Notes: generated by a model from the sequence alone, not told the origin. A stretch of DNA of 64,000 nucleotides from Patescibacteria group bacterium (GCA_050942955.1 JBMNOG010000006.1:932-64931); one strand, 5' to 3'. Positions 20,889 to 52,032 are shown, counted from the first letter of the stretch. Program-made: numbers and translations.

Positions 20889-21650
20889 TCATGGGGTATA
20901 ACGGGTATAGTCAACCGCTCCACAACGCCAGCCTGAAAGAGGGTTGACCACCTCAAGCAGCCACCCCTGTTCAATTGCCTGACCGACCCGGAAGCAGAAC
21001 TCCTGCTCTCCCCACTCCGAGGTTGTTACCAAGGCAAAACCGTCGGTAACGTTAAGGACAACCGGAGTGCCATCACTCCGCCAGGCTCTGTAGTGGCCTT
21101 CGATGCCGTTGACAACAACTCCGCCAGCGATGATAACGCTTCCAGTGGGAGCTTCAATCGTCCACACCTGATGTCCACCAACTCCAGTTGGTAAGTACAG
21201 TGAGGGGTGAGTAATATCCGGTTGGGGGTTAAGTCCAGTCGCAACAGTCCCGTTGATCACAATGAGAGGTGGTTGACCTACCGTACCCCTTCGTCCCGGC
21301 ACAACAGCCATTTCGGATGCGGCCGCTGGTACAACACCTTGTGGTTCCAGAACAGCTACCCCTTCTCTGATGGTTGCAGCCATGATTCTCTGGAGCTCTT
21401 CTTGAGTGAGAACACCCTCTTGGATCTCCTGCCTAATTTCCTGCCTAAACTGCTCGAACTCCCCCTGAGTGACCTGTCCTTCACGGACTGCTACAAGAAC
21501 CCGCTCCTCAAATTCTTCAAGGTCTGCGGCTGTAACTACGTCCACGTCACCCAGATCAGGCTCGATGTCCCCGCCAGTGTAGGCGTCACAGGCCATTAAG
21601 GCCACGATAAACACCACTACCAGAACAGATGTTGCTATTACTCGTCTCAT
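20889..21650 (-). CDS. Putative lipoprotein of unknown function (GC-rich island gene 1).
   Basis: Signal peptide ending in the lipobox-like LMAC, an E/Q-rich helical segment and a Gly/Val-rich beta domain. Local GC is about 52-55%. Confidence 0.5.
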   Translation of the reverse strand: MRRVIATSVLVVVFIVALMACDAYTGGDIEPDLGDVDVVTAADLEEFEERVLVAVREGQVTQGEFEQFRQEIRQEIQEGVLTQEELQRIMAATIREGVAVLEPQGVVPAAASEMAVVPGRRGTVGQPPLIVINGTVATGLNPQPDITHPSLYLPTGVGGHQVWTIEAPTGSVIIAGGVVVNGIEGHYRAWRSDGTPVVLNVTDGFALVTTSEWGEQEFCFRVGQAIEQGWLLEVVNPLSGWRCGAVDYTRYTP

Positions 21651-21666
21651 CTGAAACCTCCTTCTC

Positions 21667-26391: not shown

Positions 26392-26856
26392 TTACCGTCT
26401 AACAGTAATAACGTCTGTCAACTCCCCACTGGCTGAAGCAATGATACGGTTATTTTCATCCCGGGAAATGAAGTAACCGGTTTCTCCAGGCTGGTTCTCT
26501 GAAGGATCGGTCGGAATCTCAGGAATGTAGGTAGGTACAATAGTATCTCCCCCATCGCCAGCATTAGCCAGATCAAAACAGCCAACTGCTGAACCAATAC
26601 AGACTGCCTCTTCCGGAAAACTGTCAGTTAACGGATCACCATCAGTATCGGGTAAGTTTCCCTGATGCTCAGCCACGTACTGGTAAATAGCATTGGTAAT
26701 AGCATACAGATCAGACTGCCTTTGAGTGTCCCGGGCATTGGCAAATTGTCTTCCTGGGTTAACGGCAACTAACACAATGGCTGCCAAAATTGCAATAACA
26801 CCGATAACTACCAGCAATTCAACAAGAGTAAATCCTGAATGCTTATGAAGAAACAT
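26392..26856 (-). CDS. Type IV pilin (prepilin-type N-terminal cleavage/methylation domain).
   Basis: MFLHKHSG|FTLVELLVVIGVIAILAAIVLV class III signal peptide; SD AAAGGAGG upstream. Confidence 0.85.
   Translation of the reverse strand: MFLHKHSGFTLVELLVVIGVIAILAAIVLVAVNPGRQFANARDTQRQSDLYAITNAIYQYVAEHQGNLPDTDGDPLTDSFPEEAVCIGSAVGCFDLANAGDGGDTIVPTYIPEIPTDPSENQPGETGYFISRDENNRIIASASGELTDVITVRR
26665..26811. repeat. 147-bp exact direct repeat, copy 1, covering the conserved 5' coding region of pilin gene 1.
   Basis: Nucleotide-identical to 27280-27426 (atgctcagccacgtactggtaaatagcattggtaatagcatacagatcagactgcctttgagtgtcccgggcattggc...gataactac). Confidence 0.85.
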
Positions 26857-26976
26857 AAAACCTCCTTTTAAGAATAAGAGTATGTATCTACATCAAGTAT
26901 ATCTTACTTGTAGACAAACAAAAACACTCAGAAACAGGGCAGGCCCACGGATTTCTGAGTGTTTAAGAAGTACTTC

Positions 26977-27465
26977 TTATCTGCGCACAGTAATGGTACC
27001 ACCAGTCAGTTCTCCACTAGCTGTAGCGGTAACTCTCTGATTAGCATCAGCAAAGACGCTGTAGCCAGTATACGCATCAAAGTTAACAGTAAGATTTGGA
27101 TCATGCGGAATTTCAGCAATATAGGTAGGCACAATTGGCTCCTCTCCACCGGCTATAGCCAGATCAAAACAAGCAGCACCAGTTGTTGGGTGAGTTCCAC
27201 TACCAATACATGTTGGCGTAGTCGGAAATGCAGTTATTACTGCTCCACTAGCATCTAAAATATCCGGTAAATTACCGTTATGCTCAGCCACGTACTGGTA
27301 AATAGCATTGGTAATAGCATACAGATCAGACTGCCTTTGAGTGTCCCGGGCATTGGCAAATTGTCTTCCTGGGTTAACGGCAACTAACACAATGGCTGCC
27401 AAAATTGCAATAACACCGATAACTACTAACAGTTCGATTAAGGTAAAACCTCGATTTTTCTTCAT
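26977..27465 (-). CDS. Type IV pilin paralog. The true start is probably at 27465 (MKKNRGFTLIELL...) rather than the ORF-track start at 27519.
   Basis: G|FTLIELLVVIGVIAILAAIVLV prepilin motif. A strong SD GGAGGAGGTG lies 8 nt upstream of the ATG at 27463-27465. Residues about 15-64 are identical to the upstream pilin. Confidence 0.85.
   Translation of the reverse strand: MKKNRGFTLIELLVVIGVIAILAAIVLVAVNPGRQFANARDTQRQSDLYAITNAIYQYVAEHNGNLPDILDASGAVITAFPTTPTCIGSGTHPTTGAACFDLAIAGGEEPIVPTYIAEIPHDPNLTVNFDAYTGYSVFADANQRVTATASGELTGGTITVRR
27280..27426. repeat. 147-bp exact direct repeat, copy 2, in pilin gene 2.
   Basis: Nucleotide-identical to 26665-26811. Confidence 0.85.
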
Positions 27466-27521
27466 AAATACACTCACCTCCTCCCAACAGCAAAATACGA
27501 TTATTTCGCTAACACACAATA

Positions 27522-28091: not shown

Positions 28092-28689
28092 ATAAATGGA
28101 ACTGAGTTTGAACTATTACCTCACCTGAACTAGGATCAAAGTCTTTAGTAAACGTAACGGCCTTAATAAAATAAGGGCTGTTAACAATTTTGTTAAGAGC
28201 AGCATTTACTGCAGCTTCTGAACCTCGGATTCTTAACGTCATGGGCAAAAAACTCGGAGTCTTACCTATTTTTGTAGGCACATCGCTATCAACTGAAAAG
28301 CGCATCACTTCAACTGAAGAACGCAGACTATCCACAATCGCAATAAACTCAAGTAGGCTCGACTCTGTCGGAAAAGCAGATAGTACCTTTTCTCTCTCTT
28401 CTTCCGTTTCCTTAAGCGCTTGAGTCAGAAGCATCTCATCCTGTTCACTTATCTGAAATGCCAGAGACTGGGTTCTCAGTTTCTGTACAGTTAGACCTTT
28501 TTGGGGTAGTAAAGACAGCAACACACCGCTTCCAATTACAAACAGAGTCGAAAAGCTTATCAGGATAATAAATAGGCTATTGTTATTTGTTTTCTTGGGC
28601 TTTTTAGCCACTTTCTTTACTTCACTCTCTTTGCTTTGAGTTTTCGTGGTTTCAGTTGGTTGTTTTGGTTGTGACTTTGTATCGCTCAT
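28057..28689 (-). CDS. Type IV pilus assembly protein PilO-like (bitopic, coiled-coil plus periplasmic domain).
   Basis: K/T-rich cytoplasmic N-terminus, a single TM segment and a periplasmic coiled coil. Its position is between the pilin genes and pilM-N. Confidence 0.5.
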   Translation of the reverse strand: MSDTKSQPKQPTETTKTQSKESEVKKVAKKPKKTNNNSLFIILISFSTLFVIGSGVLLSLLPQKGLTVQKLRTQSLAFQISEQDEMLLTQALKETEEEREKVLSAFPTESSLLEFIAIVDSLRSSVEVMRFSVDSDVPTKIGKTPSFLPMTLRIRGSEAAVNAALNKIVNSPYFIKAVTFTKDFDPSSGEVIVQTQFHLFVSDEFTKTNS

Positions 28690-30080
28690 AAATCACCTAC
28701 TTCAGTTTTACCGATCTCACTACTTAGAGTGAAAAACAGTTGAAACGGAATGTTTTCACCTTCAGCAAAACTGGACACAGGCAGCTGCACCTCATTGATC
28801 TCTGGCAAGTCTTCTAATGCCTGCTTAAAGGTTACCATAGCCTGGCGATCAGAAGCCATCCCCATAACTGTCCCCTTCTTTTCTGGTAGTGATAGCTGAA
28901 TCTTGCCTAAAGTAATTTCGCTATTGGTTAAACTCTTAATCTTTTCAGAGGTGATGGTTGGGAAGTAATCAGTAGCAGATAGAACCTGGACACGCTGTGA
29001 AGCTTGATTAGCTGCTCCGGCAGCGGCTAAAGCTTCTTTCCGAATACTGGAAGGAGAGTTAAGGTTCTGGGTAAACTCCCGTTCTTTCTGCAGAAGCCAG
29101 AGGTAGACTCCACCTAGCGAGATAAAAAGAATGGCTGTAAACAGTGTCCAAACAATAAGGAGTTTAGTCCAAAACCTACGGTTTTGCTTTGATGTATAGG
29201 AAGAAACGTACCATTGAGGTAAAAGGTTAATAGTTTTTTGATCAGAAGGTAAAGCCACATTTTTAAGAGCTCCGGAAATAGCAAGCAGGTAGTTGTTGGC
29301 TACCTCCGGCTTAACAGTTATGGACATGGCGTAGCCTGATATCGGCAACTTCAGCTCTGAAAGTGACTCTACTAGCTGCGTAGTTACCCCCATTCCTCCT
29401 ATCTGAATCCATTCCACCGGAAAATTACGGTAGTACTTACACATATGCAGGATTGTTTGCTTTAGGTGGTCAGAGAGTTGAGTAGTCACCGGAATAAGAG
29501 AAGTAGCCACTACTTCCTGATTTTTTGTTAGAGTCAGAATGGCTTCTGTTTGAGAAACATGGACCAGAAGTCTAATTCCTGGTTTGGCTTCAGCCAGACG
29601 TACCAGCGCAAGCGCCGGAGTTTCAACAGCCGCTACTCTTATACTCTGAGACTCAATCACTTTAATATAGGCATCAACTACTTCTTGGGGAACAGCTAGA
29701 AAGAGAATGTGGTGTTTTCCGTTGGTGCTAACTACTTGCCAGTCTAAGACTACAGATTCTAAGGGATATGGTAAAACATTTTCTGCTTCCCACCTAACTG
29801 CTTCATCCGCTTCTTTATCAGGCAACTTTGGGATTTCCAAAGACTTGGAAATGGCAGTATCTTCAGGGATAATAAGTGTAATTTCGCTTAGTGAAGTTTT
29901 TGCTGCCTTAACTACTTGAGTAACAGCTTGGGTAACTGCAACTTTGTCTTCAATCTTACCACGTTTAATACTTCCCTGTGCCAGTGGCTGAGTTACTGCT
30001 GCAACTATCTGTTTTTTGTGGGCATCCAGTTGCAGGAACTGTATTTGACTAGAAGAAAACACTAAAACACTGCTTACCAT
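28686..30080 (-). CDS. pilM: Type IV pilus assembly PilM (actin-like ATPase fold) fused to a PilN-like TM/periplasmic region.
   Basis: About 300 aa of PilM-like N-terminal domain, then a TM helix (FWTKLLIVWTLFTAILFISLGGVYLWLL) and about 140 aa of periplasmic region. Confidence 0.65.
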   Translation of the reverse strand: MVSSVLVFSSSQIQFLQLDAHKKQIVAAVTQPLAQGSIKRGKIEDKVAVTQAVTQVVKAAKTSLSEITLIIPEDTAISKSLEIPKLPDKEADEAVRWEAENVLPYPLESVVLDWQVVSTNGKHHILFLAVPQEVVDAYIKVIESQSIRVAAVETPALALVRLAEAKPGIRLLVHVSQTEAILTLTKNQEVVATSLIPVTTQLSDHLKQTILHMCKYYRNFPVEWIQIGGMGVTTQLVESLSELKLPISGYAMSITVKPEVANNYLLAISGALKNVALPSDQKTINLLPQWYVSSYTSKQNRRFWTKLLIVWTLFTAILFISLGGVYLWLLQKEREFTQNLNSPSSIRKEALAAAGAANQASQRVQVLSATDYFPTITSEKIKSLTNSEITLGKIQLSLPEKKGTVMGMASDRQAMVTFKQALEDLPEINEVQLPVSSFAEGENIPFQLFFTLSSEIGKTEVGDL

Positions 30081-31271: not shown

Positions 31272-32645
31272 ATGATAGGTGTAATGCCCGCTTTTCTTCT
31301 GTCTTACCAGAGATGTCGAAACCGTGGTCAAGTATTAATTGATATCATCGTGGCTACCGGAGTTTTTCTTATTCTGGTTCACTCGGTTTTTTCGCTCATA
31401 GTAGCTATTTATGAAACCATTAACTATTCTAGGGTGCGAATGATTGCCAGACACTTGGCCAATGAAAAAATGGAGCTTTTGCTTAATGTCCCATATAGCG
31501 ATCTGGGAACTACCACAGGAATCCCTAATGGTATTATTCCGGAATTTGAAACCGTTTCCAGAAACGATGTCAACTTTATAGTGCACACCACAATTACTTA
31601 TGTAGATGACCCATTTGATGGAAATGCTCCTGTTGACCTTTTACCCACAGACTACAAACAGGTACGGTTAGAAGTTGCTCAGCAAGAAAGTTCAACACAA
31701 GTTGATATTGAACCAATTGTCATTGTTAGCCAGGTAGCCCCCCAAGGCATTGAAACTGTTACCGGCGGCGGCACACTCTCAATTTTAGTCATTGATGCCC
31801 AAAGCCAACCTGTTTCTCAAGCGCAAGTACATGTAGTCAGCAGTGATGTTGTCCCGGTAATTGATATGACCTTACAAACAAACATTGATGGTCGGCTTAT
31901 TATTCCGGGGGCCCCTCCCTGTGCTAATTGTTACAATGTAACAGTCTCAAAAGATGGCTATTCTACTGACAAAACATATACAACAGATGAGGTAGCTAAC
32001 CCCCAACGCCGCCCAATAACTGTAGAGGTAGAACGTCTCTCTGAAGCAACGTTTATTATAGACAGAACCAGTAATGTTACAGTCTATTCTCACCATGGAA
32101 GATTGAGTAACTTTTCCGTTTTCCCAAATCAGCTTTTCCGACTAACCGGCTCAAAGATAATCGGAACTGATCCTGATGGTGATCCTGTTTACAAGTTTGA
32201 TGAAACCTTTACTACCAGTAGTAGTGGACTATTGGAAATTGAAGACCTGGAGTGGGATAACTACATGCTCACCATTCCTCCTTCTGAAACCTTGGTAGTA
32301 TCAGGTGTCAATCCCTTCCAGCCTATGACAGTTAATCCAAATACAAACTATACTGTTCACTTTGCCTTGTCTCCTAAAACACTTAACAGTCTGCTTTTAT
32401 CCACCAAAGACGCCAGTGGTAGCGCCATAGCTTCTGCCAGTGCAACGTTATCTCTTGGGCCTGATGTTATCGCTACCCAGTCCGGCGGCCTTATGGATGA
32501 TCCTGATTTTGGGCAGGTATTTTTCTCTGATTTGGATGTTAATGCTTACGATTTTACGATTAACCATAGTAACTACCAACCTGCTACTGGGACAGTTACA
32601 GTTGATGGAACCACAGTCAATGAAGTTATCTTAACTGTGCAATAG
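31272..32645 (+). CDS. Pseudopilin-like protein with a degenerate prepilin N-terminus and carboxypeptidase-regulatory-like (beta-sandwich) domains.
   Basis: N-terminal RG|QVLIDIIVATGVFLIL (acidic residue at +5) and repeated beta-sandwich segments (GRLIIPGAPPCANCYNVTVSKDGYST). Confidence 0.5.
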   Translation: MIGVMPAFLLSYQRCRNRGQVLIDIIVATGVFLILVHSVFSLIVAIYETINYSRVRMIARHLANEKMELLLNVPYSDLGTTTGIPNGIIPEFETVSRNDVNFIVHTTITYVDDPFDGNAPVDLLPTDYKQVRLEVAQQESSTQVDIEPIVIVSQVAPQGIETVTGGGTLSILVIDAQSQPVSQAQVHVVSSDVVPVIDMTLQTNIDGRLIIPGAPPCANCYNVTVSKDGYSTDKTYTTDEVANPQRRPITVEVERLSEATFIIDRTSNVTVYSHHGRLSNFSVFPNQLFRLTGSKIIGTDPDGDPVYKFDETFTTSSSGLLEIEDLEWDNYMLTIPPSETLVVSGVNPFQPMTVNPNTNYTVHFALSPKTLNSLLLSTKDASGSAIASASATLSLGPDVIATQSGGLMDDPDFGQVFFSDLDVNAYDFTINHSNYQPATGTVTVDGTTVNEVILTVQ

Positions 32646-32654
32646 AAAACTGAT

Positions 32655-33287
32655 ATGAAAAGATCTATCTACCAACACAAACACTCCCAATCTGGTTTCA
32701 CACTTGTTGAGGTTCTTATTGCTTTAGTTCTCGTAATTTTTATTCTGGGAGCTATGCTGGCCCTGCAAGATATGATCTTCAACCAGCAGCAAACTACCAT
32801 CAACTCTTATGTGACCATTGATACCGCTAACCGCGCAGTTGAACGCATGGCACGAGAAATCCGTAACAGCCGTATCGCCGACAACGGAGCCTATACCTTG
32901 GAAATATTAGATGATCAAAACTTGGCATTTTACGGCGATGCTGACGGAGATAGTTCCATTGAAAGAATCCGCTACTTTCTGGATGGAGCTGTACTAAAAA
33001 AGGGAGTAATTGAGCCCACCTCACATCCCGTAACATACCCTTTGGCAAACGAAGTGGTAACTGAAGTAGCTGAGGGGATAGTTAACGGAACTGAACCAAT
33101 TTTCTACTACTACAATGGTGAATGGCCAAAAGATGAGACCAACAATCCTCTTCCAATAACTAGTCGACAGATTCATACCAGACTTATCGGCATACGATTA
33201 GTAGTTAACACTGATGAATTAAATCTTCATACAAATTATGAAATAGCCTCGTACACCCATGTACGAACTTTAAAAGATAATCTATGA
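32655..33287 (+). CDS. Minor pilin (PilV/PilW-like) with a prepilin N-terminal methylation motif.
   Basis: SG|FTLVEVLIALVLVIFILGAML. Confidence 0.75.
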   Translation: MKRSIYQHKHSQSGFTLVEVLIALVLVIFILGAMLALQDMIFNQQQTTINSYVTIDTANRAVERMAREIRNSRIADNGAYTLEILDDQNLAFYGDADGDSSIERIRYFLDGAVLKKGVIEPTSHPVTYPLANEVVTEVAEGIVNGTEPIFYYYNGEWPKDETNNPLPITSRQIHTRLIGIRLVVNTDELNLHTNYEIASYTHVRTLKDNL

Positions 33288-35629: not shown

Positions 35630-36862
35630 TTAGCGCCCACCCTGCGCAGTCTGCATATTGCCCACCACACTGTAAATAGGAGCAATAATCATAATAACCA
35701 TAGCTCCAACCGCTACCCCGATTACCAGCATAATAATCGGCTCAAGAATTGTGGTAAACTCTTTCAGGCCATCTTCCAGCTCTTCTTCGTAGTAGTCAGC
35801 CAGTTCAAGCAAAACTGAATCAAGTGCTCCTGTTTTTTCTCCGGTTTTAATAGTTTGAATCATGAGAGAGGGAAAGACCTTTTTATTTGTTGTTAAAAGG
35901 CTGGCAACAGTCTTACCTTCCTCAATTCCTTTTTCAAAGTTCTTAGCTACTTTCTGCATATCAAACTGTGTTAGGGTCTCTGAAGCAATGTTTAAAGCAG
36001 TAATAATGGAAACTCCGGATTGGAGCAAGGTTGCTAGCGTTCGGGAAAAACGGGCAAGATCAATTTGCCGACACAGTTTCTTTATAATGGGAAAGTTTGA
36101 TAGGTATTTAAAAATGACTGACTTGGTCTTATGGTAAGTAAGGAGAAAAACAAAGAAAGCGGCAAGGGTAAGAATGGTGAGAATTGCCAAAGCAGCATTT
36201 TTTCCCATAAAATCCCCAAACTGCAACAGTAGCTTCGTAGGCAGGGGTAAAGGGATTTTCATCTTAAGAAACACGGTGCTCAGTTTTGGCAACACAAAGG
36301 TTATCATTAAAACCCCTACTCCCAGCATAGCAGTGATGATGACTGCCGGATACATCAACGCTCCCATGATTTTTTTGTTCAAGCGGTGAACAGCATAAAG
36401 CTGCTTAGAAAGGTAGGCGAATGTTTTTTCTAAAGACCCTGACTGCTCCCCTGCATGCACCAGAGCTAAGAAAACACTATCAAAAACTTCTGGGTATTTG
36501 CGCAGGACAGTTGATATTTCCCCTCCTTCCTGCATAGTAAAGATCATGTCTTGGAGAATGACTTTCATTTTAGTATTTTCCGTTTCTGAGTAGATAAGCT
36601 CAACTGCTTCAGAGGCTGACAACCCAGAACGGATCATAACCGCCATGTAGCGGCAGAAATTAGCTTTTTCCAAAGCAGAAACTTTTCCCCGGAAGAACTG
36701 GATATTCCCTCTAATCTCCCGAATAGAGAGTATTTTCATTTTCTTAGCTCTTAGGGAAGCTGCAAGTTCATTCCTACTTCTGGCTTGCAGAGTCTGCTCT
36801 ACCATCTTCCCGTTTTCCAATAAGGCTTTGTAGCAAAATTGAGGCAGAGGGCAAATGTTCAA
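35630..36862 (-). CDS. pilC: Type IV pilus inner-membrane platform protein PilC (GspF family).
   Basis: Two T2SS-F domains, 3 or more TM helices and a C-terminal PIYSVVGNM-like region. Confidence 0.88.
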   Translation of the reverse strand: MNICPLPQFCYKALLENGKMVEQTLQARSRNELAASLRAKKMKILSIREIRGNIQFFRGKVSALEKANFCRYMAVMIRSGLSASEAVELIYSETENTKMKVILQDMIFTMQEGGEISTVLRKYPEVFDSVFLALVHAGEQSGSLEKTFAYLSKQLYAVHRLNKKIMGALMYPAVIITAMLGVGVLMITFVLPKLSTVFLKMKIPLPLPTKLLLQFGDFMGKNAALAILTILTLAAFFVFLLTYHKTKSVIFKYLSNFPIIKKLCRQIDLARFSRTLATLLQSGVSIITALNIASETLTQFDMQKVAKNFEKGIEEGKTVASLLTTNKKVFPSLMIQTIKTGEKTGALDSVLLELADYYEEELEDGLKEFTTILEPIIMLVIGVAVGAMVIMIIAPIYSVVGNMQTAQGGR

Positions 36863-36966: not shown

Positions 36967-38646
36967 TTACTCTCTTACTGCTCTTAAAACTTCTTCTAAG
37001 GTAGTCAAGCCTGAAGCCACTTTATCGATACCATCCTCGAGCATGGTAACCATCCCCTCTTTTTGAGCTTGATCTTTTAACTCATCCCCTGATCCTCGCT
37101 TGATTATAAGCTTGCGAATCGCCTCACTCACCTCAAAAAGTTCGTAAATACCAATACGGCCTTTATAACCCGTACCTCCACACTCAGCACAACCTTCACC
37201 TTTGTAAAATTTCTGCTTGGAAAGGTCTTTGCCGAGCATTTTTTGGAAGTACTCCAAAGTCTCCTTATCTGGCTTTTTCTCTACCAAGCAGTTTTGACAG
37301 ATCTTACGCACCAGACGCTGGGCAATAACTACATTAACAGTTGAAGCCAGTAAGTATCCTTCTACCCCCATATCAAGCATCCTTGGAAGAGCTCCAGGGG
37401 CATCGTTAGTGTGTAGAGTAGTTAAAACAAGGTGACCTGTCAAGGCAGCATGGACTGCAATCTCAGCCGTTTCGGTATCACGAATTTCTCCAACCATCAT
37501 GATGTCCGGATCATGCCTCAGAAGAGACCGGAGCCCGGCAGCAAACGTTAGGCCCGATTTAGTATTCACCTGAATTTGCGTCAGTCTGTTTAAGCCGTAC
37601 TCAATCGGATCCTCAATTGTGCAGATCTTAACGCCAACGTTATTGAGCATGTTAAGTACAGAATACAACGTGGTAGTTTTTCCTGATCCGGTAGGCCCTG
37701 TCACTAATATCATGCCGTGAGGCCGTTTTATTTGGTCTTTAATAGTTTTTAGGTTTTTCCCTGAAAAACCTAGTTCTTCAAGAGAATGAGGCCTGGTAGT
37801 TTCAGGCAGCAGACGCAGCACCACGTTTTCTCCGTAGTAACCTGGGATAATGGAAACGCGAAATGCCACCACCTCCCCAGCCATATCGTATTTATAGCGC
37901 CCATCCTGAGGTACACGGTGTTCATCAATCTTAAGATTTGCCAAAATTTTAATTCTTGCCACCAGTGCCTGTTCTACCTTTTTAGGTAAAGCCACAATGT
38001 CGCGCAACACCCCATCCACCCTAAAACGAACCATAACCTCATTAACCAGTGTCTCCAGATGAATATCGGAAGTACTCTCAGCAATAGCGTATTCAAGGAT
38101 AGTATTCAGGATTTTGACAATCGGAATGTCTTCAGCAATTTTTAGAAGATCTTCACTTTTGCCACCAGCTTTTTCAACGTTTTCAGAAATAATTTTTTCA
38201 AAGTCTTCGCGGATGTTACGTTTGTACTGTCCTAAAGCCCTTCGAATGTCTGCAGTGGTGGCATAGTAAGCTTCAACAGTCAAGCCTGTGTGTCTGCGCA
38301 CAAACTCAAGCGCCTCAAAGTTAGAAGGGTCTGACATAGCCAGCTTTAGCGTCTCTTTCTCTAAGGCAAAAGGAACAACCAAGTGAGTTCTGGCAGTTTT
38401 TTCCGGCACAAGCTCCAGAACTTCAAGGGGAATAATTTGTTGGCCGATAGTAACAAAGGGAACCTTAAGATGTTCAGCTATGATCTGGCCTAAAGCTTTT
38501 TCAGAGATAATTCCCCTGAAAATTAGAATGTCAGTGATATCACTATTAAGTTCCTCAGCAGATTTAGCAGCTAGTTGAAAATCCTGCTCTGTAACAAAAC
38601 CAGAGGCAACAAGAATCTTTTTAAGTTGGGCAGATGAAAACTTCAT
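36967..38646 (-). CDS. pilB: Type IV pilus assembly ATPase PilB (GspE family) with an N-terminal MshEN/GspE_N domain.
   Basis: Walker A GPTGSGKTTTL, Asp/His boxes and a tetracysteine motif (CQNC...CAECGGTG). Confidence 0.9.
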   Translation of the reverse strand: MKFSSAQLKKILVASGFVTEQDFQLAAKSAEELNSDITDILIFRGIISEKALGQIIAEHLKVPFVTIGQQIIPLEVLELVPEKTARTHLVVPFALEKETLKLAMSDPSNFEALEFVRRHTGLTVEAYYATTADIRRALGQYKRNIREDFEKIISENVEKAGGKSEDLLKIAEDIPIVKILNTILEYAIAESTSDIHLETLVNEVMVRFRVDGVLRDIVALPKKVEQALVARIKILANLKIDEHRVPQDGRYKYDMAGEVVAFRVSIIPGYYGENVVLRLLPETTRPHSLEELGFSGKNLKTIKDQIKRPHGMILVTGPTGSGKTTTLYSVLNMLNNVGVKICTIEDPIEYGLNRLTQIQVNTKSGLTFAAGLRSLLRHDPDIMMVGEIRDTETAEIAVHAALTGHLVLTTLHTNDAPGALPRMLDMGVEGYLLASTVNVVIAQRLVRKICQNCLVEKKPDKETLEYFQKMLGKDLSKQKFYKGEGCAECGGTGYKGRIGIYELFEVSEAIRKLIIKRGSGDELKDQAQKEGMVTMLEDGIDKVASGLTTLEEVLRAVRE

Positions 38647-38775: not shown

Positions 38776-39144
38776 TTATCCTAAATACTGTCTTACTTTT
38801 TCAGCGATTTGGCTGGGGGTATAGTTAGCTTTAAGAAGAAATTCTTTAACCCCAAGCTGAAGGGCTTTTTCTCTCTGCTCAGGCTGACTCAAGTTACTAA
38901 GCATAATAACTGGCAGGTTTTTAGTTTCAGTATTTTTGCGCAACTCTTCAAGTAGCTCCAGTCCTGAAAGTCTTGGCATCATTACGTCCATTATGACAAA
39001 GTCAGGCTTCTGGTTTTGAGCAATATCTAGTCCCTGCATACCATCTCCGGCTGTTAGAACCTCATAGCCTTCTTTTATAAACTTAGTTTGGTACATTCGC
39101 ACCAATAGCGGATCGTCTTCGACAATTAAGATCTTTTTAGCCAT
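38776..39144 (-). CDS. Single-domain response regulator (CheY-like receiver).
   Basis: ILIVEDDPLLV ... FVIMDVMMP (phospho-acceptor Asp) ... conserved Lys; 122 aa with no output domain. Confidence 0.85.
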   Translation of the reverse strand: MAKKILIVEDDPLLVRMYQTKFIKEGYEVLTAGDGMQGLDIAQNQKPDFVIMDVMMPRLSGLELLEELRKNTETKNLPVIMLSNLSQPEQREKALQLGVKEFLLKANYTPSQIAEKVRQYLG

Positions 39145-39194
39145 ATTTACCTTTGTTAAGCCATACTCTACTAACTTGTTAGTAGAATGTCAAT

Positions 39195-41351
39195 TTACTG
39201 GTGCTCTGAAGAGACTACAGGCAGTTCAAACCAAAATGTGCTCCCTTTTCCTTTTTCTGAAACTACTCCGAGCTTACCATCAAATTTTTCAATTAAAAGC
39301 TTTGTAATGTATAGTCCTAAACCTGTTCCTAAAACCTTGCCAGCGCTTGATTCTGCTCTGAAAAATTTCTGGAAAAGTTTGTTCTGTTCATCCTGAGTCA
39401 TGCCGTACCCTGTATCCTTAACTTCAAAGCGAACAGTCTGTTCATCAGGTTGAGAAAGGGTAACAGCAATGCTTCCCTTATCAGTGTACTTAATAGCATT
39501 ACTAATGAAATTTGCCACCACTTCATAAATTCGATCTTGATCAACAAATACTTTGTCCTCAATATTCTTTGAAATATTTAAACTGAAATCTAATTCTTTA
39601 TTTCTTGCCTCAATTTTGAATTCTTCAAAAGCAGTTTTTACAATTGTGGCTAAATTGCACTTCCCCATCTGATAAACTAGTCTCCCTTCTTCAATTCTGG
39701 AGACATTGAGCATGTTATTCACCAAACGAATCTCTCTTTCCGCCCCCTCCAAAGCTCCTTCTAAATACTCCCTTACTTCCTTGGAGACTTTACCGGCATC
39801 ACCTTCATTAATCATTGAAAGGTAACCCTTAACCGCAGTTAGTGGAGCTCTTAACTCGTGAGCTGCAACTGAGATAAACTCATCCTTCCTTTTGTCAAGC
39901 TCTTTGAGCTTGCTATTAGCTTCTCGTAGTTGCTCTGTTGCCTCCTTGATCTTAATTTTCAATCTTTCGCTAAATTGCTGGATTTCGGTATACTGCAAAG
40001 CGTTTTGAATAGCTACAGCCAACTGGGGGCCAAGTATTTCCAGGGTTTTAATGTCTTTGCCTGTGTAAATACTTCCCGTCTTCTTATTCCCCAGTGCCAT
40101 TAGCCCCACAATCTCACCCTTGGACTTTAGCTGCACAAAACAACCAAAATCTCCTTTACGCATCACTTTCTTCAGACCTCCTTCTGGAATGTCATCAAAA
40201 ACAATTAAACTGCTTTTGTGGGCAATCAAATCCCGGTATTGTTTTAGAGAAATATTGTGTTCTTTTTCTCCGTTACCAACCTCTGCACAAAGATCAACTT
40301 TACGTTTTGTTACGACATAAAGTCTGCCAAAGTCTACATGAAACGTTCTACTAAGCTGCTGTAACACTCTTTTTGATAATTGCTTTAGTTCTAGTGTTGA
40401 ACCGAGAATAACTGAGATTCTTGAAAGCAGCTCTTGAGGATCATAGTTTTCCTGGAAAAATATCCTGTCTGTACTTTTCTCTAAAAATCTCCTTAAAGGT
40501 TGGAATGTATACGCAACAATCAGGGTCAGTAACACTGAGATCACCAACTGATTTCCATTCAAGGTACTCGGAAGAAGTAACTGCCCTACCCCATAAAGAG
40601 CTACAGTGTAAAAAGTGATAATAATAAGAGAGAGCAAGATGTATGACACCGTCCATGCCACTACCAAGCGGATGTCCATCAGGTGATGAGCTACGATAGC
40701 GTACACTGTGGCAATAACCATGAAAAAGGTAAAGTTAGGACCAAGTGCTACAAAGGTGTAGTTCTTAAACAGAAGAGGTATTGCCAAATTGAATATCAGC
40801 CCAAAGATAATACTGGTTACAGTACCCAGCAGGATGTACTTAATCTGCTGCTTAGAAACACCGGAAACCGCAAAATATTTCTTAACTAAAGTAATTGCCG
40901 CCCACCAAAAAAACGCAATCAGATACGCTGCGTATACATATATTCCTACCCCAGTAACAAGCGGCCGGCTCTCTCCAACAAATTCTATTCTTTCTAAAAC
41001 AAAACCAGGAATTGCAACCAGTGTAGTCAAAATAACAGTGGAGGCTAAAATAAATAGCTTAAGCCATTTCTTAATTTTCCCACTTGGGAAAACGTGTGTG
41101 AAATAGAGTTGGCCCGAAGCAATAGGAATTATACTGGCATATGATAAGATTGCCCAAAAATAAATCCATGTATATGTGTTTGAAAGTCTAAAAGCAAAAT
41201 TAGTAAATGCCCATAGGGCAATTCCAAGCAGAACTACAAAGAACGACCTGTTTATTTTGCTTTGGGGGTTATTAAGGAGAACAATTAAACCAAGTACAAA
41301 GTTAATTAACGTTGTAACAAGAAGCAAAGTTATTTGCCAGTCTACACCCAT
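39195..41351 (-). CDS. Sensor histidine kinase with an N-terminal 7TM receptor module, a GAF domain, HisKA and HATPase_c.
   Basis: Seven N-terminal TM helices, a central GAF-like region, an H-box VAAHELRAPLTAV and a G2 box GTGLGLYITKLL. Confidence 0.85.
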   Translation of the reverse strand: MGVDWQITLLLVTTLINFVLGLIVLLNNPQSKINRSFFVVLLGIALWAFTNFAFRLSNTYTWIYFWAILSYASIIPIASGQLYFTHVFPSGKIKKWLKLFILASTVILTTLVAIPGFVLERIEFVGESRPLVTGVGIYVYAAYLIAFFWWAAITLVKKYFAVSGVSKQQIKYILLGTVTSIIFGLIFNLAIPLLFKNYTFVALGPNFTFFMVIATVYAIVAHHLMDIRLVVAWTVSYILLSLIIITFYTVALYGVGQLLLPSTLNGNQLVISVLLTLIVAYTFQPLRRFLEKSTDRIFFQENYDPQELLSRISVILGSTLELKQLSKRVLQQLSRTFHVDFGRLYVVTKRKVDLCAEVGNGEKEHNISLKQYRDLIAHKSSLIVFDDIPEGGLKKVMRKGDFGCFVQLKSKGEIVGLMALGNKKTGSIYTGKDIKTLEILGPQLAVAIQNALQYTEIQQFSERLKIKIKEATEQLREANSKLKELDKRKDEFISVAAHELRAPLTAVKGYLSMINEGDAGKVSKEVREYLEGALEGAEREIRLVNNMLNVSRIEEGRLVYQMGKCNLATIVKTAFEEFKIEARNKELDFSLNISKNIEDKVFVDQDRIYEVVANFISNAIKYTDKGSIAVTLSQPDEQTVRFEVKDTGYGMTQDEQNKLFQKFFRAESSAGKVLGTGLGLYITKLLIEKFDGKLGVVSEKGKGSTFWFELPVVSSEHQ

Positions 41352-41398
41352 ATATCACTAATTGTAGCAGCTATATTTCTGTTTAAGTAGGTATAGTC

Positions 41399-42193
41399 TT
41401 ACTTTTCGGAAGATTTTAAAGGAGGTTGAGGACATCCCTCCAGAAACCATGCCAGTAGTTTTGGGTTTTTATCTGTCATATTAGTTTTTGCTTCTTCGCT
41501 ACTCATAGTTGAAGCAACGTTAATTTTATCTTTAGCATGGAACTTGTGCTCTACTCCAATTTGCTTAAAAGGGAAACCATATCTTTGAAGAAGCTTCAGT
41601 AAACCTCTGGTCGTTACGATGTACCACTCATCTCTTCCTGTAGCAATAGAGAAATGGTAAGCTGCTTTGTAAAGACACATAGCAGCTTTGTTTCCCTCAG
41701 AAGATTGCCTGAGGTCTTTTTCTACTGCAATCCGAGTTACTTCAAAAGAGTTGTTAGGGTCGTCGTGCCACTCACACTCTGCTTCATTGGGAACCATTTC
41801 TTTAAACGGGCCATCTAACATAAATCCTTTGCCATTAGCAGTGGGGGTTATGAGTCTTACGTACCCAGCCAGCTCCCCTAGCCTATCTTTGTGAAATAAA
41901 CCAATATGAATAGCTGTTTCATCATAATCGTCACTTTTCATCTCTTGTTCTGGGGTTACCCAACCAAGCTCATCAGCAAATACAGCAGTCCGTAGTTGGT
42001 GAATTTTCCTTTTCATTTCTGAATTTGAGTAATCAAGCTGGGAAACCTCAAATGGTCCATCAGTAAATTCAATCCTCTCAGGCAAAGCCTGTCTATTTTC
42101 AAGGATTAATCGAAGATCGCTACTAACATCACTTTCTACAGTAGCCTCTTCTGTTTCAGGAAGAATAACATCCGTTTCCATACGCAGAGTCAT
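41399..42193 (-). CDS. LuxI-family (autoinducer synthase-like GNAT-fold N-acyltransferase) protein with N- and C-terminal extensions.
   Basis: Matches the LuxI-family signature blocks: LRTAVFADELGWVT (RxxxFxxxLGW), SDDYDE (acidic D-x-x-D), YVRLITPTANGKGFML (RLLPT block), FEVTRIAV (E-x-x-R) and the C-terminal YIVTTRGLLKLLQRYGF block. Confidence 0.6.
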   Translation of the reverse strand: MTLRMETDVILPETEEATVESDVSSDLRLILENRQALPERIEFTDGPFEVSQLDYSNSEMKRKIHQLRTAVFADELGWVTPEQEMKSDDYDETAIHIGLFHKDRLGELAGYVRLITPTANGKGFMLDGPFKEMVPNEAECEWHDDPNNSFEVTRIAVEKDLRQSSEGNKAAMCLYKAAYHFSIATGRDEWYIVTTRGLLKLLQRYGFPFKQIGVEHKFHAKDKINVASTMSSEEAKTNMTDKNPKLLAWFLEGCPQPPLKSSEK

Positions 42194-42282
42194 TTAGTAG
42201 TGCTATTTATTAACAGTAAAGACTTATAGTAATCTTTATACCAGAATACTCACTGAAAGCTTTGTTTGCAACACCTTATTAA

Positions 42283-42315
42283 AAAGCCCTGCAGATTGCA
42301 GGGCTTTTTAATAAC
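42283..42315. terminator. Bidirectional rho-independent terminator.
   Basis: AAAAAGCCCTGCAGATTGCAGGGCTTTTTAATAA: a perfect 9-bp GC stem with flanking A- and T-runs. It separates the rpsA unit from the luxI-like/HK/RR unit. Confidence 0.75.
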
Positions 42316-42335
42316 TATGTAATTATCTTTAGGGC

Positions 42336-42484
42336 TTACTCCTCTTCATCCTTCATACTCTCAAAATACTCTGAGAGTTCTTGTTCGACTTTTTCCCAAT
42401 CCCCCTTTTCTTCCCTGATCGCCTTAAAAACAAGCCTGAAGTCAATGAGAATGGTTTTGTCTGTTACAATCATTTTTTGACTCA
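42336..42484 (-). CDS. Small acidic hypothetical protein (49 aa), below the ORF-track length cutoff.
   Basis: ATG at 42482-42484 to TAA gives MSQKMIVTDKTILIDFRLVFKAIREEKGDWEKVEQELSEYFESMKDEEE. It lies between rpsA and the terminator. Support is weak. Confidence 0.3.
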
Positions 42485-42496
42485 TATATTCTCCTA

Positions 42497-43966
42497 TTAC
42501 TTGTACCCTACTGGCTTAGCTGAAAGCACCATTCCTAAGCTAATCCGGTGATTGTCAGCATCCAGAGATTCAATGTAGACATCTACTACCTCTCCGACTT
42601 TAACATCAGCATCAGATGGGATCTTGGAAATATGAATTAAGCCCTCAATACCCTTTTCAATCTCAACAAAAGCCCCAAATGGAGCCAAGCGGGTAATAGT
42701 ACCTTTTGTCTTGGTATCGGTAGGATACTTCTTGGCAATTTCTTTCCAGGGATCTTCCTGCAACCGCTTGATGGAGAGGTTGAGCTTACCACTATCTTCA
42801 TCGACATCAATCAACTGGACATCAACCATGTCACCGACTTTAAAGAGTTTGGCAACATCGTTAACTTTTTCCCAGGAAATCTCTGAAATGTGGACCAAGC
42901 CATCCAAGAAGGGACTGTCTGCCTTTTCCGGCTCGAGCATAACTCTGACAAAAATACCAAATGGCATAACTCCGGAAACCTGGCCTTTGTATGTTTCTCC
43001 GACTTTAACTTCAGACAAAAGCTCACCCTGCCGGTCTAAAATATCAGACTCAGATACTGCTTTTTCAGAAAAAATAAGGCGGTTCTTTTCCCGATCCACC
43101 TCGATAACTTTTACCGGGAAAACCTTGTTGTAGAGCTGGTCAAGCTTACCTACCCACTGTCTTCCAAACTGGGAAACAGGGATAAAACCGCGGACATTCA
43201 TAAGTCTGGCAATCATGCCACCTTTGTTAATATCCAGCCCTCTTACCTCTACTTCTTCACCTGTTTCAAGGTATTTATCAAACAATTTCCACTTCCAGTC
43301 ATTAGCGGCCCTGGAAAGAGAAAGGAGAATCTGGCCTTTCTCATTTTCCGGAGAAACAACGGTGGTTAAAACCGTATCACCGACATTAAGAAAGTTAATA
43401 TAGTCTTCAACATACTCCATCTCTTTCTCAATAAGAATACCTTCGGTTTTTGCTCCAATATCAAAAAAGACAGTTCTCTTGCCTTTGTCTGTAATAGTGG
43501 CTTTGACTTCCTGACCTTTTTTAAGACCACGAAGCTCATACCCTGTCATTTCAATAAGCTCATCCATGGAATTGGGCTGGGTTTTTAAGCCTTTACCCTC
43601 AAATGGATCTATCCTCTCTTTCAGGGTTTCTTCAATTACCGAGCGGGCCAAGGTCTCATTGGCTTTATTCTCTGTTGGAGGTTGTGCAGTTTTTTTATCA
43701 TCTGCAGCTTTAGCTTCAACTTCTTTAGCAACTTCTTCCTTTTTAGAAGTCTTGCTTTCTTTTTTAACAGTCTTTTTAGCAGACTTTTTCTCTTTGTCTT
43801 TAGGGGTAGTTTCTTTAATGGGCTTTGTAACCTTGACGGTCTTAGCAGTTTTCGTTTTAGCGGTTTCTGCTTTTTTTGTTTTCGCAGCTGCCGTAACTTC
43901 TTTCTCCTCCTTTTTTATTTGCGTTTTTTTTGCAGTTTCTTCTGCTTTTGTGGTTTTTTTAGCCAT
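42497..43966 (-). CDS. rpsA: 30S ribosomal protein S1 with a lysine/alanine-rich (histone-H1-like) N-terminal extension of about 110 aa.
   Basis: Four S1 RNA-binding domains with repeated GxxVxGxV...G..GFV motifs. The N-terminal KKTTKAEETAKKTQIKK... segment is low-complexity and basic. Confidence 0.85.
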   Translation of the reverse strand: MAKKTTKAEETAKKTQIKKEEKEVTAAAKTKKAETAKTKTAKTVKVTKPIKETTPKDKEKKSAKKTVKKESKTSKKEEVAKEVEAKAADDKKTAQPPTENKANETLARSVIEETLKERIDPFEGKGLKTQPNSMDELIEMTGYELRGLKKGQEVKATITDKGKRTVFFDIGAKTEGILIEKEMEYVEDYINFLNVGDTVLTTVVSPENEKGQILLSLSRAANDWKWKLFDKYLETGEEVEVRGLDINKGGMIARLMNVRGFIPVSQFGRQWVGKLDQLYNKVFPVKVIEVDREKNRLIFSEKAVSESDILDRQGELLSEVKVGETYKGQVSGVMPFGIFVRVMLEPEKADSPFLDGLVHISEISWEKVNDVAKLFKVGDMVDVQLIDVDEDSGKLNLSIKRLQEDPWKEIAKKYPTDTKTKGTITRLAPFGAFVEIEKGIEGLIHISKIPSDADVKVGEVVDVYIESLDADNHRISLGMVLSAKPVGYK

Positions 43967-45069: not shown

Positions 45070-45210
45070 CTTGACTTCCCTGTTCCGGCTTCGACCTATT
45101 TTCACAATGGGTTGCCCCACTACTATCGTCGGCGCTGAGGCGTTTAACGACTCTGTTCGGAATGGGAAGAGGTGGTGCCACCTCGCTCCAGAAACCGGAA
45201 CACGAAAGTC
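45070..45210 (-). rRNA. rrf: 5S ribosomal RNA (boundaries approximate, +/-10 nt).
   Basis: The reverse complement contains GTGTTCCGGTTTCTGGAGCGAGGTGGCACCACCTCTTCCCATTCCGAACAGAG...GCGCCGACGATAGTAGTGGGG, a 5S-typical helix I/loop C/loop E signature. It lies directly downstream of 23S. Confidence 0.8.
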
Positions 45211-45344
45211 AAGCTGAGTAATTTTCAATGTTCAGTGAATAACCTAATACCCAATTATTTGAAAATTGATAATTGTTAATTAATCATTAGCCCAAAGGGC
45301 TTTTTGCTCCTTTAAAAGTGAATAGAAGTTTACAGTAGGAAATG

Positions 45345-48310
<2,966 letters not shown>

Positions 48311-48504
48311 ACAAATAGCAAATGACAATCAAGATTACATTTGCCTACATCTTCTATTCACTTTTAAAAGAGCCAAAATCTCGCCAGCTAAATTGCAAAA
48401 ACACCAGTTTTTCTCAATCTGCCAGTCTGATTTCCTAACTCTTCAGTAGTTAGTCATTGCCGGCTAATAGTGCTTACTAACCTCCAATAACTAACAACCA
48501 AATG

Positions 48505-48577
48505 TGGACCGTGGGAGGATCGAACTCCCGACCTCTACATTGCAAATGTAGCGCTCTCCCAGCTGAGCTAACGGCCC
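48505..48577 (-). tRNA. tRNA-Ala(UGC) in the rRNA spacer.
   Basis: Reverse complement GGGCCGTTAGCTCAGCTGGGAGAGCGCTACATTTGCAATGTAGAGGTCGGGAGTTCGATCCTCCCACGGTCCA. It has the G3:U70 pair and anticodon TGC. Confidence 0.9.
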
Positions 48578-49099
48578 AGATAAGTTCCTATCATCTAAAC
48601 CCTAGATTGCCAGTTTTACCTAAAAGATACTTCTGGCTCAGCTGCCAGCTGATCCCATTTTAGCGGGACAAGGCTAACGGCCCAGAGTCTGTCCTCTTTG
48701 TATATCCACGTATATTAAAAGTGCTCTTGTGGCCCTAACTCTTTCTGAGACATGGCCAAAACTAAAAAAGTCTCCGTTAGGAGACTTGTAAAACCATGCA
48801 CTAAGCCAAAATCACCACCGCCAGCGACAAAATTGTTCAAATTTTGAATGAGACGATGTTGTTGTGATTAATGTTTTAGGCATGCAGAGTAAATCTCCTA
48901 ACATCTATACCGTATTCTATCAGACAAGTTGCCACCAAGTCAACGGATATTATTGATCAATTTAAAGATCTGTCAGATCTTAAATGGCTTATTCAGCTTC
49001 ATCCATTCATCAACTAAAAGATCAGGTGAGCTTGCCCATCGAAGGATCGGGCATGGAACACGGCTGAATAAGCTAACGTGGAGTAGCCTGATCCATAGG

Positions 49100-49173
49100 T
49101 GGGTGATCTTGGAGTCGAACCAAGGACCTCAGTCTTATCAGGACTGCGCTCTAACCAACTGAGCTAATCACCC
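49100..49173 (-). tRNA. tRNA-Ile(GAU) in the rRNA spacer.
   Basis: Reverse complement GGGTGATTAGCTCAGTTGGTTAGAGCGCAGTCCTGATAAGACTGAGGTCCTTGGTTCGACTCCAAGATCACCCA. The anticodon loop is CTGATAA (GAT). Confidence 0.9.
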
Positions 49174-49467
49174 AGGGATTCTTCTGTCTAGATATATACC
49201 TCAACAAAGAACTCTCTATTTTACCATGTTTTAAAAACCTTGGGCAGTCATTATATCATTCAAACTCAAAAAACTTCTCCACCATTGAAGCACCAGGATA
49301 CCAAAGATGTATATTGTGTTAGGCAAATAAATTGAGTACATTTTTTCTTGAGTAAAATTCAGAAACTTGCACTTGATACTTATAGTAGAATTATAAGGAT
49401 AGTTCACTCCTTCTTCATATACTTTAACTATAATTATTGAAAACATTACTAAATTAATGGAGATACC

Positions 49468-50085
49468 ATGGCTTTTACCCTTCCTCCACTTCCCTATGAT
49501 TACAATGCGCTTGAGCCTTCAATTGATGAAGAAACAATGCATTTTCATCATGATAAACATCACCAAGGGTATTTAAATAAGTTTAATGATGCCTTAAAGA
49601 AATATCCGGAGTGGCAAGAAAAATCTCTTGAAGAGATTATGGCTAACTTGGAAAAGCTGCCAGAAGAAGTAAAGACAACTGTCCGAAACAATGGTGGCGG
49701 CTACTACAACCATAATCTGTTTTGGGAAGTGATGAAGCCCGACGGCAGTGAGCCATCAAAAGAGATGCTCGCTATTTTAGAAAGCCGTTTTGGCGGCTTA
49801 AAAGAGTTTCAGGATGAGTTCAGTGCTATTGCCGCCAATCACTTTGCCAGCGGCTGGGCGTGGCTGGCTATGAAACCTAACGGCACCCTTACCCTCTATT
49901 CTACTGCCGGACACGATAACCCTCTCATGGTGGGTGAAAAACCTTTGTTAGTTTTAGATGTCTGGGAACATGCCTACTACCTTAAGTATAAAAATGACAG
50001 GGCTGAGTTTATTCGTAATTGGTGGAAGGTGGTTAACTGGGGGAAAGTTGAAGAGAATTATAATAAAGCAAAGGAGACCTTGTGA
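49468..50085 (+). CDS. sodA: Fe/Mn-type superoxide dismutase.
   Basis: Metal ligands and motifs FHHDKHHQGY and DVWEHAYY. 205 aa. SD-like GGAGATACC lies upstream. The gene sits inside the 16S-23S spacer on the strand opposite the rRNA genes. Confidence 0.9.
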   Translation: MAFTLPPLPYDYNALEPSIDEETMHFHHDKHHQGYLNKFNDALKKYPEWQEKSLEEIMANLEKLPEEVKTTVRNNGGGYYNHNLFWEVMKPDGSEPSKEMLAILESRFGGLKEFQDEFSAIAANHFASGWAWLAMKPNGTLTLYSTAGHDNPLMVGEKPLLVLDVWEHAYYLKYKNDRAEFIRNWWKVVNWGKVEENYNKAKETL

Positions 50086-50151
50086 TAACTAGGTAACTCT
50101 CTCCTCTCTATTCATATCTATTTATACATTTTATTAATAAAATGTATAAAC

Positions 50152-50179
50152 AAAAAAACCACCCGCTTGGGTGGTTTTT
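50152..50179. terminator. Bidirectional rho-independent terminator between sodA (+) and 16S (-).
   Basis: AAAAAAACCACCCGCTTGGGTGGTTTTTAAG: a GC stem with an A7 run on one side and a T5 run on the other. It is preceded by an AT-rich perfect palindrome TTTATACATTTTATTAATAAAATGTATAAA (50123-50151). Confidence 0.75.
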
Positions 50180-50310
50180 AAGAGAATGCAAGATGTGGAA
50201 GAAAAGCCTGTTAATCCTGGAGTTTGATCGGGAAAGAATCTTCCCTTATTGTTTCTTCTGATATTACTACCAGAATGGAAAATCCCGCGTGAGAGGGATT
50301 TACCAAAACT

Positions 50311-51828
<1,518 letters not shown>

Positions 51829-52032
51829 AAAAAAGTTCCCGCAATAGGCGGGACTATTTCTGAGTAAAGGAATTAACAGGTAAATTCAGATCCGCCAACT
51901 GGCAGATCGAATGATTTCTTCCACATCTTGCACTCCCGTTAGGGTCGTCTAAGCTTGCTAGCTTGAAAGTGAAGACAGGTTTAAAGTACAGATGTGATCG
52001 TAGTATTAACTTGTTAATGTACTCAAACAGTC

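Follow-up and report, generated by a model that had tools for sequence, protein, structure and literature searches.

The window analysed here is a stretch of 64,000 nucleotides (nt) from a genome that NCBI lists as 'Patescibacteria group bacterium' (GCA_050942955.1 JBMNOG010000006.1:932-64931). The locus of interest, on the minus strand, holds three genes, coding for a LuxI-like putative signal synthase, a sensor histidine kinase with a seven-transmembrane (7TM) domain and a stand-alone CheY-like receiver, followed by the type IV pilus genes pilB and pilC (Table 1). All genes are co-oriented, with spacers of 47 nt between synthase and kinase, 50 nt between kinase and receiver and 129 nt between receiver and pilB. 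A preliminary description, made from the sequence alone, had reported a strong terminator followed by a tight synthase-kinase-receiver run into pilB-pilC, no LuxR-type receptor, and a genome resembling the Candidate Phyla Radiation (CPR). The open reading frames (ORFs) are as claimed, and the NCBI source agrees with the proposed host. The terminator segment (42270-42325, minus strand) folds at -28.1 kcal/mol (z = -7.49), and 0 of 200 shuffled sequences were equally stable. No LuxR-type receptor (GerE helix-turn-helix) was found in any ORF of the window, the best match reaching 6.8 bits (E 0.09) with a profile made of four sequences. We consider it probable that the first two genes constitute a make-and-sense cassette, in which a LuxI-superfamily N-acyltransferase would be paired with a dedicated 7TM kinase receptor.

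The linkage of synthase and kinase was followed across genomes from both sides. On the synthase side, we looked up the genomic places of ten homologs, three of which lie on contigs that stop 85-160 nt past the gene. In the seven with readable downstream DNA, a HisKA_7TM protein is always found directly 3', co-oriented and within ~100 nt (7/7). The closest homolog (P0002, 41% identity, GC content 0.64) offers 160 nt of downstream sequence, and is therefore uninformative and no exception. The N-terminal 300 residues of the window kinase score 99-163 bits against these downstream proteins, which is far closer than to the generic Pfam model (41.6 bits), and its 7TM domain scores 97-163 bits (phmmer) against the 7TM domains located 3' of other LuxI-like genes.

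A search of GTDB representative genomes with the single synthase protein returned no related locus. On the kinase side, an alignment of the linked sensor domains (A3) was searched against GTDB representatives and JGI metagenomes, and the loci were scored by our own profiles. On the linked-domain profile, a 7TM domain score of at least 183 bits goes with a LuxI-like gene immediately upstream in every locus. At 172 bits or less there is no such gene in any of 32 loci, for each of which 700 nt or more of sequence upstream was available. After removal of duplicates, 12 distinct pairs remain (the window and 11 further loci), all with the synthase followed by the HisKA_7TM kinase. They span synthase identities of 27-67% and a GC content of 0.26-0.60, with Saccharibacteria and Nealsonbacteria metagenome-assembled genomes (MAGs) among them. 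The 12 linked 7TM domains group as a single clade when 44 sensor domains are placed in a neighbour-joining tree. This linkage (12/12 versus 0/32), together with the monophyly, supports a cassette of a signal synthase and its cognate receptor, and a functional tie between synthase and kinase is thus supported. The Nealsonbacteria pair is isolated, with genes of opposite orientation on both sides, so that the minimal unit is synthase plus kinase. Recurrence of the whole gene trio in relatives had been named as a test of a functional unit. The pair recurs without exception; the receiver lies directly 3' of the kinase in three of six readable loci (the window, L003 and L027; not L002, L015 or L025).

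Some further loci of this survey deserve description. An apparent stand-alone 7TM protein of 246 amino acids (aa) after the synthase in L010 and L011 was rejected, as a frameshift is present and the kinase resumes in another frame. The same frameshift after the 7TM domain occurs at 3060-4046 of L010 and 1846-2941 of L011 (Logan SRR13124528 and JGI 3300032192), and reflects either a genuine pseudogene or split gene, or an assembly error common to both. In L023 (318-1015), a high-scoring 7TM kinase is preceded by a LuxI-like gene that is broken into two overlapping ORFs, which suggests a frameshift or decay. A second HisKA_7TM-GAF subfamily of ~735 aa, not linked to LuxI, was found in L017, L018, L028, L033, L045, L046 and L049, on Syntrophaceae and Thermodesulfobacteriota-type contigs. 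Its kinase is consistently followed by two receiver-containing genes (~470 and ~400 aa), at ~1.5 kb and 3.4 kb past it. The sensor family thereby occurs in a second conserved module, distinct from the cassette. Finally, in L002 and L013 (GCA_030603885.1, CSMAG_1200) the neighbours of the pair contain the archaeal-named Pfam families MJ0043_C, AF_1845, Endonuc_Holl and DUF763. The cassette may also exist outside Bacteria, or the CSMAG_1200 MAG may be unusual.

In terms of domains, the kinase contains HisKA_7TM (PF16927; 41.6 bits, cutoff 28.6), GAF_2 (30.5 bits; GAF domain at residues 320-449), HisKA (57.5 bits) and HATPase_c (98.1 bits). The phospho-acceptor His498 is present in the H-box 'SVAAHELRAPLT'. 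NCBIfam models gave no match to the N-terminal 459 residues. A GAF domain is also found in the L009 and L015 kinases, and is absent from those of L002, L003, L025 and L027. The receiver matches Response_reg (96.2 bits), has no output domain in Pfam and retains D10, D11, D53, S83 and K105. The two proteins are thus a 7TM-GAF histidine kinase and a CheY-like receiver, as the preliminary description had them, and their motifs are intact.

As for the synthase, Pfam Autoind_synth (PF00765) matches the 264-aa protein at E 7.4e-14 and 52.2 bits (gathering cutoff 24), over model positions 6-179 of 183, and also matches 55 of its 60 nearest relatives. Acetyltransf_5 scores 35.5 bits, and the FeeM family (PF21926) 19.1 bits, under its gathering cutoff of 27. 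All significant matches in a PDB sequence search are acyl-homoserine lactone (AHL) synthases, with LasI first (E 2e-6), then TofI and EsaI. The LuxI signature blocks previously noticed line up with LasI residue by residue. We take the conserved set of AHL synthases to be LasI R23, F27, W33, E42, D44, D47, R70, F84, E101 and R104. Nine of the ten are present, as R68, F72, W78, D88, D91, R113, F130, E151 and R154 (paired in this order with the LasI residues other than E42), and the sole change is from LasI E42 to K86 (codon 41936-41938). A generic GNAT match with blocks that do not line up was thus not obtained, and the observation of a LuxI homolog stands.

The structure model, obtained with AlphaFold (AF2) on a 60-sequence alignment, is confident, with a predicted local distance difference test (pLDDT) value of 87.1 and residues 41-251 mostly above 89. 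It has the LuxI-type GNAT-like fold and superposes best on LasI, RpaI and TofI, in line with the comparison that the preliminary description had proposed. In a Foldseek search with the model, LasI and FeeM are nearly level, FeeM being a close fold match as well.

The question of which acyltransferase family this is required an exhaustive HMMER search of 1.8 billion representatives, as word-indexed searches gave essentially the protein itself, or 11 proteins. There are 411 relatives at E <=1e-3, and besides the protein itself one reaches 1e-30, at 41% identity. The top NCBIfam model is TIGR03694 (PEP-CTERM/exosortase-associated acyltransferase), with 79.1 bits in two stretches, under the cutoff of 111.95. 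The NCBIfam AHL-synthase models are further from their cutoffs, with 42.6 versus 292 bits for NF010408 (TraI subfamily) and 39.2 versus 250 bits for NF052393 (equivalog). That the protein is a homolog of the LuxI family, as first proposed, therefore stands at the level of Autoind_synth, while membership of the AHL-synthase family proper is not established.

The TIGR03694 match bears on a rival explanation, in which the enzyme makes a lipoamino acid (a surfactant, or a membrane or surface lipid) and the 7TM kinase monitors or regulates the state of the envelope, with no role as an autoinducer receptor. TIGR03694 matches all 60 nearest relatives, and scored with the query, the true TIGR03694 member P0029 (157 bits on that model) reaches 65 bits versus 31 for LasI. 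The C-terminal helices are common to both groups, and some relatives have weak OlsB matches. PMC7293339 and PMC4897644, which refer to Craig et al. 2011, tie N-acyl amino acid synthases (NAS) to PEP-CTERM systems. On the contrary, the query and all tested linked relatives stay at 53-85 bits on the model, under the cutoff, and true members cluster apart from them, at 125-201 bits. Neither an exosortase nor a PEP-CTERM gene turned up in the Pfam annotation of the window, which covered ~4-31 kb and 33-44 kb (with the plus-strand ORFs at 31272-32645 and 32655-33287 outside the scan); a sortase is present instead. The FeeM Pfam model falls under its cutoff, and a profile of the linked clade searched against the PDB gave seven AHL-synthase structures at 4.8e-23 to 6e-18 (LasI first, at 4.8e-23, then EsaI, BjaI, TofI, RpaI and MesI) and no FeeM chain at E <=1. 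Strict coupling to a sensor kinase is furthermore the pattern of signal synthases. We regard the lipoamino acid explanation as unlikely, although it is the strongest of the rivals.

Residue patterns separate the two groups further. Six of the ten conserved residues (R, D, D, R, E, R) show no variation in true TIGR03694 synthases either, and are therefore not diagnostic for the LuxI family. F72, W78 and F130 favour the LuxI side. The linked clade shares with LasI the F at position 72 (LasI F27), W at 78 (W33), M at 125 (M79) and F at 130 (F84), where true TIGR03694 members mostly have Y (21/25), F (19/25), P (24/25) and C (16/25), respectively. F27 and W33 are reported to line the S-adenosylmethionine (SAM) site in work on LasI and EsaI. 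Judged by sequence, the protein belongs to an unnamed LuxI-superfamily clade between the canonical AHL synthases and the TIGR03694 N-acyl amino acid synthases. Its active-site pattern appears to lean to the former, and its overall sequence to the NAS group. As neither curated cutoff is reached, family assignment does not settle the product. This may be an AHL made from SAM, which is slightly favoured and falls just short of an even chance. An N-acyl amino acid or other N-acyl amine is an almost equally likely candidate, and something else takes the remainder.

The ends of the protein had been described as atypical extensions of roughly 65 and 50 residues. Homologs and LasI start aligning at query residue ~40-58. 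Residues 1-40 are acidic, unconserved, disordered and of low confidence (pLDDT <60). NCBI places the start at Met5 (260 aa) and there is an in-frame TTG at codon 37, so that the N-terminal tail is ~40 residues and may partly reflect start-codon choice. An N-terminal extension is thus retained, shorter than proposed and possibly an artefact. The C-terminal one is not, being mostly a family-typical helical pair. Residues 232-251 form two helices (pLDDT 85-96) with a conserved NPxLxxW motif, common to the clade and TIGR03694, and the last 13 residues are the unique part.

The make-and-sense cassette would work as follows. The LuxI-superfamily N-acyltransferase would make a lipophilic N-acyl signal. 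Within the membrane, this signal would be sensed by the 7TM domain of the co-inherited kinase. In this genome, the kinase would then phosphorylate the adjacent stand-alone CheY-like receiver. The output could be control of the type IV pilus genes that follow, or of the pilus motor, as suggested by position only. The analysis shows the fold and catalytic residues of the enzyme, intact motifs in kinase and receiver, and a strict co-inheritance of the synthase with one 7TM subfamily; binding of the enzyme's product by the 7TM domain, the chemistry of the product and the output are inferred.

Several points weigh against this reading. The protein stays below the curated cutoffs of either named family and scores closer to P0029 than to LasI. 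The LasI E42 position is E or D in 10 of 11 linked relatives of the alignment, with Lys in this protein only, and K86 may indicate altered substrate handling or reduced activity. The receiver is absent in half of the readable loci. Adjacency gives a functional link and not its direction, and the kinase could regulate the synthase. The kinase could also sense a membrane property changed by the product instead of binding it. CPR bacteria are usually without fatty-acid synthesis, which puts the acyl donor in question. HisKA_7TM domains are without a known ligand (PMC5847659), and we found no publication linking them to one. No experimental characterisation of any clade member or of such a pair was found in the literature searched.

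A more specific proposal, also made in the preliminary description, is that the acyl signal, via kinase and CheY-like receiver, controls the PilB/PilC motor encoded immediately downstream. The genes are co-oriented, and the 129-nt receiver-pilB spacer is unstructured (z = +1.6), with no hairpin or terminator and with AAGGAG ahead of the pilB ATG. Read-through into pilB is plausible here. Between kinase and receiver there is a weak hairpin (-9.7 kcal/mol), together with TTGACA-17-TAGAGT, which resembles a promoter. Further genes of a type IV pilus cluster (pilM, pilins) follow in the window, and in the Saccharibacteria locus L009 a pilB-like gene lies 4.3 kb upstream of the cassette, on its strand. 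In other bacteria, single-domain receivers are among the regulators of pilus motors. Pili play a central part in the episymbiotic lifestyle of CPR (PMC12206443). However, pilB lies near the cassette in two of seven readable loci (the window and L009; absent in L002, L015, L024, L025 and L027), the Nealsonbacteria cassette is flanked by oppositely oriented genes, and the receiver itself is kept in half of the loci. As CPR genomes commonly carry pilus genes, the proximity may plausibly be due to chance. The five-gene layout recurs on one other contig only (L060), which is 99.94% identical to the window and hence represents the same population, not independent evidence. As receiver and pilB are not conserved neighbours, control of the pilus is speculative; the comparative data give it no support, and we rate it as improbable. 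At residues 61-143, near its N-terminus, PilB has an MshEN domain (68.6 bits). Such domains bind cyclic di-GMP in other systems, which would give the pilus motor an alternative input independent of the neighbouring two-component genes.

Less probable still, and best seen as a long shot, is the most far-reaching version of the make-and-sense cassette. Here the signal would fall outside both the classical AHLs and the known N-acyl amino acids, and the 7TM domains would be the first receptor family for it. The cassette would be a self-contained autoinducer system across CPR and some other uncultured lineages, gating type IV pili (host attachment or DNA uptake) via the CheY-like receiver.

Lastly, a conventional proteobacterial-type LuxI/LuxR synthase acquired by horizontal transfer, with an irrelevant neighbouring kinase, would agree with the AHL-synthase names in NCBI and IMG and with the Autoind_synth match, but is very improbable given the NCBIfam AHL-synthase scores, a nearest relative of 41% identity among 1.8 billion representatives, the lack of a LuxR-type helix-turn-helix in the 64 kb, a synthase GC content like the remainder of the window and a kinase pairing kept in 12/12 loci.

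Table 1. Coordinates of the synthase-kinase locus and of neighbouring features in the window.
Feature	Position	Strand	Remarks
LuxI-like synthase gene	41399-42193	-	ORF, 264 aa; putative signal synthase of the kinase-linked clade
Sensor histidine kinase gene	39195-41351	-	ORF, 718 aa; 7TM, GAF, HisKA, HATPase_c
HisKA_7TM membrane sensor domain of the kinase	40671-41327	-	Kinase residues 9-227; proposed ligand-binding part
Stand-alone CheY-like receiver gene	38776-39144	-	ORF, 122 aa; probable phosphoacceptor of the kinase
pilB	36967-38646	-	MshEN 68.6 bits and T2SSE ATPase 435 bits (Pfam); unit membership not established
pilC, T2SSF platform protein	35630-36862	-	T2SSF 171.5 bits (Pfam)
Intrinsic terminator (A-tract, GC hairpin, U-tract)	~42281-42309	-	Ends the upstream S1-protein/small-ORF unit and isolates the cassette
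S1-domain protein gene, upstream of the terminator	42497-43966	-	ORF
pilM	28686-30080	-	PilM_2 match
Pilins (two prepilins)	26392-27519	-	N_methyl matches

Between the S1-domain gene and the terminator there is a small ORF of 49 codons (MSQKMIVTDKTILIDFRLVFKAIREEKGDWEKVEQELSEYFESMKDEEE; 42335-42484, minus strand), which starts 13 nt past the S1 stop. The window also carries a 16S-tRNAIle-tRNAAla-23S-5S operon, RadA, a sortase, glycosyltransferases and glycosidases. The rRNA operon is complete (45083-51831, minus strand), with the 16S at 50317-51831 and the 23S at 45371-48302. The two are ~2 kb apart, with tRNA-Ile(GAT) and tRNA-Ala(TGC) between them and an unassigned spacer of more than 1.1 kb between 16S and tRNA-Ile. 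An ORF of 205 aa at 49468-50085 lies on the strand opposite to the operon. The GC content is 0.49-0.50 at 11866-13020 and 20889-23163 (minus strand), versus ~0.42 elsewhere outside rRNA genes, and these stretches coincide with ORFs of 384, 253 and 498 aa with no Pfam match on record. Finally, a 1109-aa ORF without a Pfam family on record (16504-19833, minus strand) is located between a PMT-family glycosyltransferase and a GT2 glycosyltransferase. The surrounding block also has a cellulase and a GH3 glycosidase, and may be a locus for a large surface or cell-wall protein.

The preliminary description spoke of an uncharacterised circuit, but the arrangement as such had been noted before. Bernard et al. 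2020, mSystems (PMC7567580) listed 36 LuxI homologs in CPR, 18 of which adjoin a putative sensory kinase and were proposed as complete quorum-sensing systems. Their Table S4 covers 11 CPR phyla (Giovannonibacteria, WWE3, Kerfeldbacteria, Nomurabacteria, Portnoybacteria, Ryanbacteria, Saccharibacteria, Taylorbacteria, Uhrbacteria, Vogelbacteria and Yonathbacteria), with the LuxI homolog directly upstream of the kinase in most pairs. Several of the paired kinases match the CqsS sensory-domain hidden Markov model (HMM), down to 2.8e-18. The present protein is itself already named AHL synthase by NCBI (MGI5827930.1) and IMG. The cassette described here is a further example of the computationally predicted CPR pair, with the same kind of host and the LuxI homolog directly upstream of a co-oriented kinase. 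The earlier work was computational as well, labelled its kinases by a generic ATPase-domain or CqsS-sensory HMM, and does not list this genome. What is added is the definition of a dedicated monophyletic HisKA_7TM subfamily, the all-or-none linkage with respect to more distant 7TM kinases, and the assignment of the synthases to neither of the two curated families.

Members of the CPR/Patescibacteria are ultrasmall and for the most part episymbionts, and the regulation of their host contact is little understood. If the make-and-sense reading is true, the cassette would be one of few identifiable devices for cell-cell or cell-host signalling in CPR, and would provide a candidate ligand class for HisKA_7TM sensor domains. 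As it has only two genes, it is directly testable by heterologous expression. Its value is tempered by the catalogue of 2020, the automatic annotation as AHL synthase and the lack of conservation of the pilus link.

Compared with known systems, the synthase differs from the canonical AHL synthases (LasI, EsaI, TofI, BjaI and RpaI) in ~20% identity, far under the NCBIfam equivalog cutoffs, in K86 in place of the conserved Glu, in the extra ~40-residue acidic disordered N-terminus, and in a kinase partner in place of LuxR. With TIGR03694 and FeeM it shares the top curated HMM, the C-terminal helical pair, the core of six residues and, for FeeM, a close fold. It differs from them in the missed cutoffs, the separate clustering from true members, the four LuxI-type positions and the absence of exosortase context. 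Methanosaeta FilI, a kinase reported to make carboxy-AHLs, was weighed as an analogue; it is not known to contain a LuxI-like domain. In the Vibrio systems LuxM/LuxN, AinS/AinR and CqsA/CqsS, the synthase gene adjoins a multi-pass membrane kinase that binds a lipophilic autoinducer, with no LuxR-type receptor. The Vibrio reference proteins are listed in Table S1 of Bernard et al. (PMC7567580). By analogy, the circuit logic here would be the same, a synthase with an adjacent membrane kinase, unlike that of LuxI/LuxR. The enzymes are different, as LuxM and AinS are not of the LuxI family and CqsA is aminotransferase-like. Furthermore, LuxN and CqsS are hybrid kinases feeding the LuxU/LuxO relay, whereas the kinase of this locus is non-hybrid, contains GAF and has a stand-alone receiver encoded after it.

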